In this document: in pieces, positions 74-4,553 of the stretch
Layout: each line of letters begins with the position of its first letter
Position numbering within the stretch: position 1 is the first letter of the stretch
IMG/VR virus record: IMGVR_UViG_2671180770_000005
Length of the DNA stretch: 4,553 nt
Reading direction: 5' to 3' (one strand)
Source: a virus
Lineage: Duplodnaviria > Heunggongvirae > Uroviricota > Caudoviricetes
Position numbers and translations under genes: made by a program
Notes under the pieces: model-generated
What the model was told of the DNA's origin: nothing
Databases searched by the model: none
Seen by the model: the letters and a program-made list of their open reading frames with translations, nothing else

Positions 74-421
74 TTACGGCAGCGCCGCATGACTCAGGGC
101 ACTGCCGGCAAAGGCATTTGCCTTTTTGTGTTCATCCACACTTTCAGGCCAGCGGATTGCCTCCGTCGCAAAGGTCCCCGACTTGTAATAGGTCAGTACC
201 GTCTCTGTGCCTTCAAGCGGCAGTACCAGTATGCCAACTGCACTACCGGCTTTCTGTCCGTCCCAGACCACCAGTTTCCCGGTAGCTTCATCCAGCATCA
301 GGGGCGTCAGTGCCGGTGTTGCCGAGGAAATCCCGCTGCTGCCTGTGGCGGTATGAGCCGGATCATTACCGGCAAAAATACGTACTTCCGCACGCTGTTC
401 AGTGATGGTTTTCGTCACCAT
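74..421 (-). CDS. D: Head decoration protein (lambda gpD-like), 115 aa
   Basis: ORF-track translation MVTKTITEQRAEVRIFAGNDPAHTATG...TPLMLD...KLVVWDG...AVGIL...YKSGTF...AFAG matches recalled lambda gpD motifs (SDPAHTAT, TPLMLD, KLVAWDG, FYKSGTF, AFAGTA). ATG at 421..419; position immediately downstream of C as in lambda. Confidence 0.9.
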   Translation of the reverse strand: MVTKTITEQRAEVRIFAGNDPAHTATGSSGISSATPALTPLMLDEATGKLVVWDGQKAGSAVGILVLPLEGTETVLTYYKSGTFATEAIRWPESVDEHKKANAFAGSALSHAALP

Positions 422-457: not shown

Positions 458-1060
458 TCATGGCATGGCCATGAGCATTTTCACGTCCGCATCACCGTCT
501 GCTGACGTCTGTGGCACGCCACCCCGCACCGCTGCCGGTGAATGATTCGCCATGAAATGTTCAAACAGGGCTGTTGTGGATGCAGAGACCGGTTCGGCCT
601 TACCTGATCCCGCAGCCAGCACAGCCCGGGCGTTCTCCACGGTCATTCCCGGGCAGGCCGCCAGTTTTTCAGCCTGCGCTTCTGCCCCTTTTGCCTCATC
701 CAGGGCCATGATCTGATCACGAAGTGAGGGCCCGGCATCCGCCAGTGGTGCAGCCGCCAGGATCGGGCGGGCTTTTTCCACCGTCATCTCCGGCATCGCC
801 GCCAGCGTTGCCGCCAGTTGTTCACGACCTTTCGCTTCTTCACACGCCATAATGCGATCGGCTTCACTCTGCGCGGATGCCACCGGCTGCTGCGGTGCCG
901 CCGCGGCCAGAATCGCCCGGGCCTGTTCAACGCTCATGCCCTGTTGTCCTGCCAGCATCGTGGCAAGCTGTTCACGTCCTTTCGCTTCCTGGCATGTCAG
1001 GATCCCCATCACTCGCTGGTTCTCCTGCGCGGCGGCTTCCGTTGCAGTTAATTGCGGCAT
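458..1060 (-). CDS. nu3: Nested in-frame scaffolding protein (lambda Nu3-like), ~200 aa, translated from an internal start within C
   Basis: Internal ATG at 1060..1058 (Met292 of the C ORF) is preceded on the minus strand by AGAGGAGG-CACT-ATG, a strong Shine-Dalgarno embedded in the codons for R-G-G-T. In lambda, Nu3 is the in-frame C-terminal portion of gene C. The local sequence (GGTMPQLTATE) parallels lambda (SGGRMTKETQ) as recalled. Confidence 0.5.
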   Translation of the reverse strand: MPQLTATEAAAQENQRVMGILTCQEAKGREQLATMLAGQQGMSVEQARAILAAAAPQQPVASAQSEADRIMACEEAKGREQLAATLAAMPEMTVEKARPILAAAPLADAGPSLRDQIMALDEAKGAEAQAEKLAACPGMTVENARAVLAAGSGKAEPVSASTTALFEHFMANHSPAAVRGGVPQTSADGDADVKMLMAMP

Positions 1061-1933
1061 AGTGCCTCCTCTGACATTACTGTTCAGCGCCGTGGCCATC
1101 ACACTGATGGCATCCGACGCATTGATTAATTCATCCGCCAGCCCGGCCTCAATGCCGGACTGACCTTCAAAAACAGCGGCCTCTGTTCCCGTGACTGCAT
1201 CAACAGACAGACCGGTAAACATCGCCACTTTTTCGGCAAACATCCGGCGCGCCGCATCAATCCGCTGCTGCATGTCCTGGCGAACCTCTGCCGGCAACGC
1301 TTCAAACTGATTGCCATCCACCTTGTGCGCCCCTGAGTAAATCAGCGTGATATCCACACCGGCCTGCGCCAGATGACCGGCATAGCTGACATGGCTCATC
1401 ATCACGCCAATGGAACCGATACGGGATGTCTGGGTAACCAGCCGTCGGGAGCAGGCCGACGCCAGCAGCATGGCCGCAGAACAGGCCGTGTCATTACACA
1501 GTGCCCAGACCGGCTTCTGCTGCCGGAGGCGGTAAATCATGTCAGCGCAGTCAAACGCGCCGGCGGCCTGCCCGCCCGGACTGTCAATGTCCAGCAGTAT
1601 GCCCCGCACCTGGCTATCTGCCATTGCCTGCTGAAGACAGGCGACAATGCCGTCATAGCCAGTCATTCCGGAAAATGGCCGCATCCCCCCCAGCCGGTGC
1701 ACCAGCGTGCCGGTCACCGGCAGTACCGCAATACCGTTCACCACCCGGTAAACACGGGCCGGTCGTTTACCTCCGGCCATGTACTCGTCCGTTTCAGCCA
1801 GCATAGGTACCGAAAGACTTGCTGCCCCCATCTCGCGCCCGAGCGCGCAAAAGAAAACCCGCGCATAGGCGGGCTCCAGAAGCAGCGGTTCATTGAATGC
1901 TGCGGCAATAATGTGTGAAAGATTACGTCTCAC
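458..1933 (-). CDS. C: Prohead protease / scaffold protein (lambda gpC-like, S49/ClpP-type serine peptidase domain followed by a Nu3-like scaffold region), 491 aa, GTG start
   Basis: N-terminal ~280 aa resemble recalled lambda gpC (AFNEPLLLEPAYARVFF, GYDGIVACLQQA, GILLDIDSPGG, AGAFDCADMI, KPVWAL, RLVTQTSRIGSIGVMM, ITLIYSGAHKVDGN, TEAAVF, AGLADELIN). The C-terminal part carries a Nu3-like module. The ORF is in-frame with a stop 12 codons upstream of the GTG, so GTG at 1933..1931 is the only plausible start. Confidence 0.9.
   Translation of the reverse strand: MRRNLSHIIAAAFNEPLLLEPAYARVFFCALGREMGAASLSVPMLAETDEYMAGGKRPARVYRVVNGIAVLPVTGTLVHRLGGMRPFSGMTGYDGIVACLQQAMADSQVRGILLDIDSPGGQAAGAFDCADMIYRLRQQKPVWALCNDTACSAAMLLASACSRRLVTQTSRIGSIGVMMSHVSYAGHLAQAGVDITLIYSGAHKVDGNQFEALPAEVRQDMQQRIDAARRMFAEKVAMFTGLSVDAVTGTEAAVFEGQSGIEAGLADELINASDAISVMATALNSNVRGGTMPQLTATEAAAQENQRVMGILTCQEAKGREQLATMLAGQQGMSVEQARAILAAAAPQQPVASAQSEADRIMACEEAKGREQLAATLAAMPEMTVEKARPILAAAPLADAGPSLRDQIMALDEAKGAEAQAEKLAACPGMTVENARAVLAAGSGKAEPVSASTTALFEHFMANHSPAAVRGGVPQTSADGDADVKMLMAMP
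611..1015 (-). repeat. Three tandem degenerate repeats (period ~141-159 nt) inside the C/Nu3 coding region, each encoding a ~40-aa module (IMxxxEAKGxE...LA...PGMTVExARxILAA)
   Basis: Protein level: C ORF residues ~307-346, ~360-396 and ~406-441 align with each other. DNA level: near-identical core TTCACG(A/T)CCTTTCGCTTC at ~971-990 and ~821-840; the third copy (~611-718) is more diverged. Confidence 0.7.
1065..1072 (-). promoter_or_regulatory. Internal Shine-Dalgarno (AGAGGAGG) for the nested Nu3-like start
   Basis: Minus-strand AGAGGAGG lies 4-7 nt upstream of the in-frame ATG at 1060..1058. It is the strongest SD-like element inside the C reading frame that I could see. Confidence 0.5.
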
Positions 1934-3515
1934 GTGGTGTTGTCTCCTCTTCCGGCCTGCGACTCTCCGCTATCTGCTGCTGATACGCCTGCGCTATCCA
2001 CACCGGACGTGAGAGTCCGGCTTTTTCCCGCTCTGCAGATTCCCTGACCTGCTGGCGGAAAATGTCCTGATAATCCTCGCCCATCAGCGCCAGCTCTTTC
2101 TCATACGTGCTCAGTCCGGCCTCAATGCGCATCACTGATTCCTGAACCTCCTTGAGCCCGTCAATGGCCATTCTTCCGGCTCCAATCCACTCAGCCCGTG
2201 ACCAGGCTGATCGCGCCTGATAAAAATCAAAACGTGCCCGTGGCGGACGAATAATCCCCCGAAGAAGTGCCTCTTCCAGCCAGCAGGAAAACATCTGCGT
2301 GGCCAGCCGGGACGCAATAAATTTTCGCCGCCCCATAAAATAGCGCCACGACTCATTGGCGGATGCGCGGGCACTTGAATAACTGACCTTCGAGTAATCA
2401 CGGGACAACTGTTCGTAGGAAACGCCAAGACCGGCGGCGATATACCGCAGCAGCGCCTGTTCAAGCGCCGAAAATCCATTGTCTGAATCCTGCGCGGTCT
2501 GAAGTTTCAGATCATCACCGGGGAAAAGGTGCGGAATTTTGACACCGCCCAGCGTCACGCTATTCGTGTCATACCAGGTGGAGAACTTATCCAGAATATT
2601 AATAAGCGGATTATCCTTCTGCCCCTGCGGCGCACCGGCGATATATTCAAAGGCCTTTTCGGTATCAAGGTCACTTTCAATCGTCGCTGCATACATCGCC
2701 TTCACTATGGCCGACTGAAGCTGTGTTGCCTGCAGGGAATCGAGCATCTTCAGCCGTTCCATTACGCTGTAAAACTGATTGGCCCCACGGGTCTGCCCGT
2801 CCTCCACCGGCTCGAAAATATGCAGCATGGCCGGACGCCCGGTGGGAAGTTCACGCGGGATCCGTTCCCATCGTCCACTCCCGGAGAACGGAAAATCATC
2901 CTCACAGATATGGTACGCAACGGCACGACCATATCGATCGACCTCCACACCGGCCCGCAGAAAACGGTTCCCCATACCGTGTCCTGGCGTGTCCACCCGT
3001 TTCGGACTCACGGCTTTAAAACGCGTACGAAACAGTTGCGTGCTCTCCGTATCCCAGACCGGCTGCACAAAGATTTCGCCGTTAAACGCATGAACGCCCA
3101 CACCTTCACGAATAAATTCCGTAAACGTGCGTTTCTCTTCCACGTCGATCTCGCCAGACATCCCTTCGGCGTATTCCGACCAGGCCGCCTCCACCTCATC
3201 GACAAAACTTTTTGCCGCAGTCTCCCGCATCCCCAGCCAGCGCCAGTTCGGACGATAGCTGATCAGAAACATATGCCCGACAATATGATCCTTATGCAGG
3301 GCCACCGCATTGGCCGCTATCCCGTTATTGCGCACCAGATCATCTGCCCGGGCATTCCCCAGACGCAACGCAGGCAGCAGGGCTGCATCGGCACTCTGCG
3401 CCGGTGGCAACCACTCCGCCATTTGCCCGCCAAATCCTGCGCCGCCCCCGTTGTAGCTGAGACTCTCACGAAGCGGAACGCCGTTCACATCAATCAGGAC
3501 AGGCGTTCGTTTCAT
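1923..3515 (-). CDS. B: Portal protein (lambda gpB-like), 530 aa
   Basis: ORF-track translation matches recalled lambda gpB along its length (DAALLP, GNARADDLVRNNG, SPKR, IPRELP, HIFEPVEDGQTRGANQFYSVME, LQSAIVKAMYAATIES, PGDDLKLQTAQDSDNG, LLRYIAAGLGVSYEQLSR, SARASANESW, GRMAIDGLKEVQESVMRIEAGLSTYEKE). ATG at 3515..3513 overlaps the W stop (ATGA). Confidence 0.95.
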   Translation of the reverse strand: MKRTPVLIDVNGVPLRESLSYNGGGAGFGGQMAEWLPPAQSADAALLPALRLGNARADDLVRNNGIAANAVALHKDHIVGHMFLISYRPNWRWLGMRETAAKSFVDEVEAAWSEYAEGMSGEIDVEEKRTFTEFIREGVGVHAFNGEIFVQPVWDTESTQLFRTRFKAVSPKRVDTPGHGMGNRFLRAGVEVDRYGRAVAYHICEDDFPFSGSGRWERIPRELPTGRPAMLHIFEPVEDGQTRGANQFYSVMERLKMLDSLQATQLQSAIVKAMYAATIESDLDTEKAFEYIAGAPQGQKDNPLINILDKFSTWYDTNSVTLGGVKIPHLFPGDDLKLQTAQDSDNGFSALEQALLRYIAAGLGVSYEQLSRDYSKVSYSSARASANESWRYFMGRRKFIASRLATQMFSCWLEEALLRGIIRPPRARFDFYQARSAWSRAEWIGAGRMAIDGLKEVQESVMRIEAGLSTYEKELALMGEDYQDIFRQQVRESAEREKAGLSRPVWIAQAYQQQIAESRRPEEETTPRET

Positions 3516-3718
3516 AACCTCACTCCCAGCGGACGACGGCGACGCCGGGTTGTCCCCAGTACCGACTCCGCATCATTGATCGCCCGGTTAAGCTCATCCA
3601 GAGAAGCCGCCGTATATTCAATTCTGCGACCATCTTTCTGGACAGACACCACCCGTTTACCGGTTAATAAATCAAGGCGCGCCTGACGTAGCGCCTGTAG
3701 TTCAGCGACTGTAACCAT
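3512..3718 (-). CDS. W: Head completion / head-tail joining protein (lambda gpW-like), 68 aa
   Basis: 68 aa, the same length as lambda gpW. LLTGKRVVSVQKDGRRIEYTAASLDEL resembles recalled lambda W ([27 protein letters not shown]). Strong SD (GGAGGAG) 5 nt upstream of ATG 3718..3716. Lies between terminase and portal as in lambda. Confidence 0.85.
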   Translation of the reverse strand: MVTVAELQALRQARLDLLTGKRVVSVQKDGRRIEYTAASLDELNRAINDAESVLGTTRRRRRPLGVRL

Positions 3719-4553
3719 TCACTCCTCCGGACAGCTTCGCTGCCAGTTCTTTAAGGGTTGGCCGGGTCGTCTCTTCTTCCCGGGATTTTGCTAGTACAGC
3801 CAGATCAAGCTGCCAGCGTTGCACGGACACACGTAATGCCGCGTAGGCATACACCAGGCAGTCCAGCGCTTCGTTACGCCGCTTTTTGTTATCCCACAGC
3901 AGACGCATCTTTCCTTTTTCCCACTTCTCCACAAGCTCTTCCGCGACCAGTTGCTGCGCCTCTGTCTGCGAAAAAATCTCCGGATCATCAGGAAAACGGA
4001 TGGCATACGACGTGGCTTCATCCGCAGGCGTGGGATCGGCTTTCATACGGGCATAGAGAATTTCTTTTGCGGTGTCCGTCCCCACTTCACACAGATACAC
4101 GCCCCGCTGATTGCGGGTTTTCGGCATGGTGATCACCGGCTTGCCATAGACAGATGCGCCTTTTACCGGCAGCACCCGGAAAACACCGTGTTTTTTTGAC
4201 CTCTGATAGACAATTTCACCATCGATCCCCCCGGTGTCCCAGCAGACACGGGAAATGGTCATTTCGGTTCCGTCTGCATGGCAGTATTTTTTGTTGATCG
4301 CCGCATCCACACGTAACAGCGTCTCTTCCTCATCGGGACGGCCCATAATGATGATTTTATCCACCAGAAAAGCTTCCTCTCCCGGTGCCCATCCCCAGAC
4401 ATACATCTCAAAACGGTTTCGCTGCGAGTCAATGCCCGCCGTCAGATAAACCACCCGGGCAGGTACCGCCGCCGTGTAATGCACGACCTTATCCATCAGT
4501 ACCTGGTGATCGAGTTTTTCGCCCACGGCTTCTTCCCAGGTCTCGCCCAGCGT
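3702..4553 (-). CDS. A: Terminase large subunit (lambda gpA-like), C-terminal ~283 codons; 5' portion of the gene lies beyond the window end
   Basis: ORF-track protein (GEKLDHQVLMDKVVHYTAAVPARVVYLTAGIDSQ...CWDTGGID...KHGVFRV...KGASVYGKP...GTDTAKE...TEAQQL...KKRRNEALDC...RWQLDL) closely matches the recalled lambda gpA C-terminal region. The frame stays open through 4527..4553 (TLGETWEEA, as in lambda), so the track start at 4526 is an internal GTG/Val codon, not the true start. Confidence 0.92.
   Translation of the reverse strand, partial: TLGETWEEAVGEKLDHQVLMDKVVHYTAAVPARVVYLTAGIDSQRNRFEMYVWGWAPGEEAFLVDKIIIMGRPDEEETLLRVDAAINKKYCHADGTEMTISRVCWDTGGIDGEIVYQRSKKHGVFRVLPVKGASVYGKPVITMPKTRNQRGVYLCEVGTDTAKEILYARMKADPTPADEATSYAIRFPDDPEIFSQTEAQQLVAEELVEKWEKGKMRLLWDNKKRRNEALDCLVYAYAALRVSVQRWQLDLAVLAKSREEETTRPTLKELAAKLSGGVNGYSR

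Follow-up and report, generated by a model that had tools for sequence, protein, structure and literature searches.

Gene 5, the gene C homologue in the 4,553-nucleotide (nt) viral DNA studied here (IMG/VR record IMGVR_UViG_2671180770_000005; "the window" below means this whole stretch), encodes three successive copies of a small module, each of some 40–50 residues, in its scaffold region, at amino acids (aa) 305–448 of a 491-aa product. For the C-terminal part of this product (gp5), an S49 prohead protease, the sequence predicts separate synthesis: an internal AGGAGG-ATG start would yield the scaffold protein gp6, and the two proteins would share the triplicated module in frame. A sequence-only reading had proposed a threefold tandem repeat in the C/Nu3 scaffold region at 611–1015, equivalent to aa 307–441 of the open reading frame (ORF). 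The repeat was borne out, with the following features.

458–1933, minus strand: gene 5/C homologue, S49 prohead protease with C-terminal scaffold region, 491 aa, GTG start
872–1021, minus strand: repeat unit R1, aa 305–354 (alignment unit)
731–871, minus strand: repeat unit R2, aa 355–401 (alignment unit)
590–730, minus strand: repeat unit R3, aa 402–448 (alignment unit)
899–1045, minus strand: module R1 (Tri1), predicted three-helix bundle, aa ~297–345; core aa 306–345 at 899–1018 (hmmsearch and alignment)
749–880, minus strand: module R2 (Tri2), aa ~352–395; core aa 359–395 at 749–859 (hmmsearch and alignment)
608–730, minus strand: module R3 (Tri3), aa ~402–442; core aa 406–442 at 608–718 (hmmsearch and alignment)
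969–988, minus strand: R1 DNA core GAAGCGAAAGGACGTGAACA, encoding EAKGREQ, 19/20 identical to the R2 core
819–838, minus strand: R2 DNA core GAAGCGAAAGGTCGTGAACA, partner of 969–988

Self-alignment placed the repeats far above shuffled sequence. The local BLOSUM62 scores were 110 for R1/R2, 82 for R1/R3 and 102 for R2/R3 (shuffles: mean about 25, standard deviation about 5), which corresponds to z values of 16.6, 11.6 and 15.1; not one of the 2000 shuffles scored as high. At the DNA level, the z values were 20.7, 8.8 and 17.8 for the same three pairs. The two DNA cores, 150 nt apart, differ at one of 20 positions, in line with the roughly 90% identity first noted over a 20-nt core, and R3 is indeed the most diverged copy, with GAE in place of GRE. 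Furthermore, the consensus read from the three copies agrees with that of 175 module instances, whose profile reads I-x-x-[CL]-x-E-A-K-G-R-E-x-L-A-x-x-L-A-x-x-P-G-M-[TS]-V-E-x-A-[KR]-x-I-L-A-A-A. Tandem Repeats Finder did not report the array and a seed-based DNA repeat search returned only fragments of it, because the DNA copies are too diverged; the array is a protein-level repeat.

The tripled module is already known and has been annotated in GenBank since 1993: the three repeats are features of record M81255 ('Bacteriophage 21 head gene operon'). In this record, the gene 6 nested in gene 5 has a separate ribosome-binding site and carries three repeat_region features, 'Tri1 box', 'Tri box' and 'Tri3 box', noted as 'function unknown; putative'. 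Mapped to the window, the boxes fall at ~890–993, 743–853 and 599–712 and equal R1, R2 and R3. The complete phage 21 genome (OL657228) names the two products capsid protease/scaffolding protein and scaffolding protein. In the open-access literature, we found no text on the Tri boxes or on domain mapping of Nu3. Gene order, the nested gene 6 and its ribosome-binding site are the same in coliphage 21 and in the window, but a few residues of the modules are substituted; for example, the EAxGRE motif of R2 has K in the window and N in phage 21, and linker 2 reads APLADAG in the window and SPQADAG in phage 21. What is new here is incremental: the three-helix-bundle prediction, the one-copy norm of the family, the age of the triplication and a catalogue of in-register copy-number alleles.

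Predicted module fold and the nested scaffold gene

We predicted the module fold by running AlphaFold2 on the R1 unit (aa 296–353) with a 70-row alignment of module instances. The single module was confidently predicted as a three-helix bundle (predicted local distance difference test, pLDDT, 91.6; predicted template-modelling score 0.75), with helices at aa 297–313, 321–328 and 335–344. The folded unit thus starts about 9 residues upstream of the start first given for it, helix 1 running from aa ~297 (window ~1045). In this model, helices 1 and 2 are joined by a turn made of the EAKGRE motif, and PGM(T/S)VE supplies the loop and cap ahead of helix 3. Across the 175 instances, a small hydrophobic core is conserved (I1, C/L4, A7, L13, A14, L17, A18, M23, V25, A28, L32, A33–35), as are the charged positions E6, K8, R10, E11, E26 and K/R29. 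A test for repeated helix-turn-helix units had been suggested for this region; the prediction gives three-helix bundles instead. The first reading had also linked coat binding by scaffold proteins to C-terminal helical modules: the modules here are predicted to be helical, but their position is internal, with a 49-aa tail after them, and no two-helix hairpin of the P22 type was found at the extreme C-terminus.

For the whole 200-aa gp6, single-sequence AlphaFold2 gave an all-helical, weak model (pLDDT 63.7), and the Foldseek matches of this model were set aside as meaningless. The module matched no Pfam family and no specific structural relative, it has no detectable sequence or structural similarity to the solved C-terminal domain of the P22 scaffold, and the PDB sequence set contained no structure of Nu3 or of the module. 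As modelled, the module is the only compact, confidently predicted domain of the lambda-type scaffold.

The separate scaffold protein would arise from the following elements.

458–1060, minus strand: gene 6, in-frame nested Nu3 homologue, scaffold protein, 200 aa, start MPQLTATEAA (phage 21 annotation), ATG at 1058–1060
1065–1070, minus strand: Shine-Dalgarno sequence AGGAGG, 4 nt upstream of the gene 6 ATG (read from the sequence)

A ribosome-binding site is annotated at the gene 6 start in both M81255 and OL657228, and the gene 6 region matched PHROG families of head scaffolding and capsid assembly proteins, each in 3 matched stretches. In lambda, GGAGG lies 4 nt before the ATG of gpC Met310 (MTKETQ...; lambda 5330–5345), a site homologous to the phage 21 gene 6 start. 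RefSeq places the lambda nu3 start instead at codon 239 (201 aa; lambda 5132). A start at Met310 would yield a 130-aa Nu3, matching phrog_8399 (131 positions, 'head scaffolding protein').

One module in lambda, three in phage 21 and Gifsy-1

The first reading had put a single such module in lambda gpC/Nu3, which proved correct. Pairwise comparison showed that lambda gpC (439 aa) holds one module, not three, and the profile of the three modules matched it once, at aa 359–398 with 51 bits (SRIMGILNCEEAHGREEQARVLAETPGMTVKTARRILAAA). The general architecture is therefore an S49 protease, a linker, n modules and a tail, with n = 1 in lambda and n = 3 in phage 21. Lambda gpC/gpNu3 resembles the window gene in its S49 domain, its place between the portal and decoration genes, its GGAGG-ATG and a related tail motif, but differs in having one module, a linker before the module that is ~36 residues longer, and a shorter tail. 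We rejected a vestigial second module in lambda, where MAFFT had set DRLM under the start of R2; when lambda is compared with Aeromonas phage ARM81ld, Gifsy-1 and phage 21, DRLM turns out to be part of the single-copy tail motif.

To survey the family, we searched 1.84 billion representative proteins with the profile, which gave 333 matches (protein clusters at 50% identity) with E ≤ 1e-3; the best 150 were used for counting. One module was found in 130 of these 150, two in 14 and three in 6, so that three modules are the state neither of lambda nor of most homologues. The multi-copy matches were mostly fragments or relatives of the phage 21/Gifsy-1 type. Three small stand-alone proteins (P0161, P0223 and P0242) have two modules with long linkers between them and look like independent duplications. 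In the family, the module occurs after S49 protease domains or in small stand-alone proteins; long matches with tape-measure or tail L domains are prophage deletion chimeras. Chimeric relatives (P0001, P0081, P0086/P0090, P0119, P0182 and P0166) have the scaffold tail swapped for tail-fibre-like or Gly/His-rich sequence, or the protease fused to tape-measure/tail L domains, and look like prophage decay products or assembly errors; P0001 contains a duplicated stretch of 156 aa, which takes in the end of the protease domain.

The gpC homologue of Gifsy-1 (STM2605) has three modules in the same order, each nearest to the phage 21 module of the same number, and shares the tail motifs. Its Nu3 region differs in being only about 56% identical to that of phage 21, and its linkers are shorter and unrelated. 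Orthologous modules of the two phages are 75%, 78% and 62% identical, compared with 51–59% for paralogues. Because orthologous modules are closer to each other than paralogues are, while the linkers have diverged, the triplication predates the phage 21/Gifsy-1 split and all copies have been kept since.

Copy-number alleles and the surrounding head genes

Direct repeats were expected to be a substrate for recombinational change of copy number, and natural Escherichia coli prophages do carry hybrid deletions, a 57-nt deletion within a module and a 150-nt duplication. Among the 120 closest database proteins, which are all >80% identical and all come from E. coli or Shigella, in-frame changes of length are concentrated in the repeat region, with the following alleles.

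491/501 aa: no indel, three modules; 12 clusters
482 aa: 19-aa deletion inside R2 (57 nt, ~2.5 modules); 69 clusters, with P0034 in 3592 index blocks
451/452 aa: whole-unit deletions of 49–50 aa, two modules; P0087, P0088, P0092, P0117 and P0114
472 aa: 29-aa deletion; P0113
551 aa: 50-aa insertion, four modules (150-nt duplication); P0002 and P0003, two assemblies
various lengths: small linker indels; several

The whole-unit deletions have at least 5 distinct in-register R1/R2 crossover points, each of which leaves two well-formed modules. These hybrid crossovers fall in or after the conserved EAKGRE core, and the junctions of P0087 and P0088 lie at the 969–988/819–838 cores. DNA alignment showed that the 57 nt missing from the 482-aa allele are flanked by two copies of an 8-nt direct repeat, and that a 147-nt deletion is flanked by CACCGCAG repeats in the two linkers.

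810–817, minus strand: 8-nt direct repeat CTGGCGGC, first copy (allele DNA alignment)
753–760, minus strand: 8-nt direct repeat CTGGCGGC, second copy (allele DNA alignment)

Since all variants have their junctions at short direct repeats, these results support the recombination idea. The DNA record of the four-module allele (GCA_900537015.1, LS992828.1) has N at both GGAATGACN positions that flank the 150-nt duplication, which hints at mixed reads or a collapsed repeat, and this allele is less certain because the N positions are at the junction. The protein from a second assembly (P0003) has the same four-module architecture.

We used 40-nt junction probes to count alleles in complete E. coli genomes; the halves of the probes are below the 28-nt seed, so that half-matches to intact alleles are not joined. 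The 57-nt-deletion junction was found in 56 genomes and the 147-nt-deletion junction in 1 genome at two places (O157:H7 strain 7636, CP038421), while the intact second half of R2 was present at 2691 places in 1688 genomes, or about 92% or more of the prophage loci. The P0087-type hybrid 40-mer had no match in complete E. coli genomes; the count of two-copy alleles there covers this probe and the 147-nt-deletion junction. One two-copy allele lies within an apparently intact head operon. The 452-aa two-module allele of CP038421 adjoins a truncated major capsid gene (88 aa) that runs straight into tail genes, and its prophage is for this reason regarded as defective. All 19–20 isolated phage records of the phage-21 head type keep three modules. 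Three copies predominate overall, and the isolated phages show no other number.

These counts bear on whether the extra copies matter at all. They could be near-neutral filler or spacer, a slippage or unequal-crossover expansion that became fixed in the phage 21/Gifsy-1 lineage, with one module doing the work and the others only making the internal core longer or bulkier. A single module and a longer N-terminal linker suffice in lambda, E. coli genomes contain alleles with 2, 2.5 and 4 modules, and R3 lacks the Arg of the GRE motif that is otherwise 90% conserved, all of which fit such an origin. However, the three copies keep both consensus and positional orthology across the phage 21/Gifsy-1 split although the linkers diverged, all isolated phages of the phage 21 type are three-copy, and the deletion alleles are a small minority of loci. 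Positional orthology and retention make a neutral expansion less likely, and we consider it improbable.

The window holds four further genes around gene 5.

3702–4526, minus strand: 3' part of the terminase large-subunit gene A (ORF list)
3512–3718, minus strand: gpW homologue (ORF list)
1923–3515, minus strand: portal gene B, 530 aa (ORF list)
74–421, minus strand: decoration-protein gene D, 115 aa (ORF list)

The gene order on the minus strand is A-W-B-C-D, with C between the portal and decoration genes, and related loci show it too, together with E, FI, FII, Z and U. The first 11 nt of gene 5 (window 1923–1933) are also the end of the portal gene, and the unusual GTG start of gene 5 is conserved, as lambda C also begins with GTG. 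Pfam Peptidase_S49 (PF01343) matched aa 136–283 of the ORF (E = 1.4e-34, 119.7 bits against a cutoff of 24.9), and SppA chains in the PDB matched it with E of about 1e-16; its last 190 residues matched no Pfam family. The 491-aa protein is 98% identical to phage 21 gp5 and 59% identical to lambda gpC. Coliphage 21 and a set of phage-21-headed lambdoid phages share 96–97% DNA identity with the whole window (97% over all 4553 nt for coliphage 21), and the last 593 nt of the ORF occur at 2922 places in 1870 of 5426 complete E. coli genomes. Given this identity to phage 21 and this wide spread, the window is, by sequence, the head-gene block of a common phage-21-type lambdoid prophage of E. coli.

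Several minor features were also recorded. The ORF is without 30 nt (10 aa, QQQVQFDAPG) that are present in phage 21 gp5 (501 aa); the gap, at window ~1795/1796 between codons 46 and 47, sits in a variable stretch N-terminal to the S49 domain where lambda is unalignable too, and the same 491-aa form occurs in the database as P0004 and P0006. Antisense ORFs across the region had no support and were set aside. On the plus strand, TTGYN6TTGY matches lie antisense to the scaffold gene at 808–821 (inside R2) and 1042–1055, and OL657228 labels both 'transcription factor CII' binding sites. We rejected them as CII sites, as they are at chance level (0.84 expected per window; at least 2 in 42 of 200 shuffles).

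Possible partners of the modules

We lean, if only somewhat, towards a view in which gp6 and gp5 are kept in the prohead by the bundles, acting as protein-interaction units, and in which the three copies give additive valency. Each bundle would act as an independent unit and would keep gp6 and gp5 inside the assembling prohead through the capsid-protein shell, through each other, or both. The three copies may confer additive, partly redundant valency, and the S49 protease would then destroy the scaffold so that DNA can enter. Tandem three-helix-bundle binding modules are familiar from surface proteins of bacteria, namely the staphylococcal protein A domains and the GA albumin-binding module, which we list as a related system. 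A broader version, in which the module is a widespread scaffold domain family, an autonomous three-helix-bundle unit whose copy number sets valency for the capsid shell, is more tentative.

Several points weigh against the favoured view. The coat-binding elements of the best-studied scaffolds, P22 gp8, 80alpha gp46 and herpes simplex virus VP22a, are C-terminal, and the modules are not. In P22 gp8, the coat-binding domain is a terminal helix-turn-helix, whereas the phage 21-type module is internal, repeated and predicted to have three helices. Coat binding could instead reside in the single-copy tail and C-terminal motif, both of which are conserved, and much of the polar conservation in the module (EAKGRE turn, S/T-V-E cap) may serve the fold and not an interface. 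Lambda has a head similar in size to that of phage 21; three copies are not strictly required for a capsid of this kind, because lambda builds its similar head with one. In addition, one two-copy allele lies in a clearly defective prophage. The general logic matches that of P22 gp8 and of other nested or fused protease-scaffold genes (P2 gpO, Mu gpI/gpZ), in part as summarised in PMC8508860: a transient internal scaffold has a small helical unit that is either encoded in frame with a prohead protease or eliminated by it.

The tail that follows the last module has two conserved single-copy elements.

518–577, minus strand: single-copy tail motif TTALFEHFMANHSPAAVRGG, aa 453–472 (tail comparison)
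461–493, minus strand: extreme C-terminal motif DADVKMLMAMP, aa 481–491 (tail comparison)

The first is related to TALDRLMQGAPAPLAAG of lambda and TALDRLMEDSPAAVQG of Aeromonas phage ARM81ld, and the pattern TAL(D/F)(R/E)(L/H)(M/F)M..(S/A)PA.. comes after the final module of phage 21, Gifsy-1, lambda and ARM81ld. These four proteins also finish in a short hydrophobic/charged C-terminal end (DVKMLMAMP here, TTLLMSIP in Gifsy-1, NDLLNTPV in lambda), and DADVKMLMAMP is a candidate alternative partner-binding peptide. Distant relatives have varied amphipathic or basic C-terminal helices, while their module is still about 50% identical.

The main rival builds on this tail: the modules would self-associate (gp6–gp6, gp5–gp6), forming the core of the scaffold and bringing the protease in with it, whereas the single-copy tail (TALFEHFM...SPAAV, ...DVKMLMAMP) would contact the capsid protein, and tripling would alter how the scaffold oligomerises or forms networks while leaving its valency for the shell unchanged. 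The tail is conserved after the last module in the four phages named above, its variation in distant relatives next to a conserved module is what would be expected if the tail, but not the module, tracks the capsid protein, and the coat-binding part is C-terminal in well-studied scaffolds. On the other hand, the need of so small a domain to fold can account for the strong conservation of the module. In lambda, two-hybrid assays reported Nu3–Nu3 and C–Nu3 contacts, as self-association would have it, but also an E–Nu3 contact, all without domain mapping (PMC3224144). These interaction data do not discriminate between module partners, and we regard self-association as possible rather than probable.

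A further alternative is that the modules bind the gpB/gp4 portal dodecamer, so that tripling would strengthen nucleation at the portal vertex. Nu3 is listed as required for incorporation of B into the procapsid (PMC3224144, Table 2), which such binding would explain, and at each locus examined the module family was accompanied by lambda-type portal genes. However, nothing points specifically to the module over other parts of Nu3, and the two-hybrid study detected no interactions of B (PMC3224144); we consider a portal role very improbable.

The favoured view, in which the bundles are interaction units of additive valency, concerns a step that is still poorly defined, namely the contact of lambda-type scaffolds with the shell. 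The lambda initiator complex has been described as ill-defined, and the lambda scaffold is removed from proheads by the protease before packaging (PMC3224144). The value of the finding is incremental, and the window is an ordinary, very common prophage allele. Nevertheless, a small, confidently predicted three-helix bundle would be a convenient handle for mapping scaffold–capsid or scaffold–scaffold contacts, and nature offers a copy series, with one module in lambda, three in phage 21 and Gifsy-1, and two and four in in-register alleles. If the valency reading is true, the prophage alleles of E. coli and Salmonella with 1, 2, 2.5, 3 and 4 copies would be a ready series for testing the nucleation and fidelity of prohead assembly.
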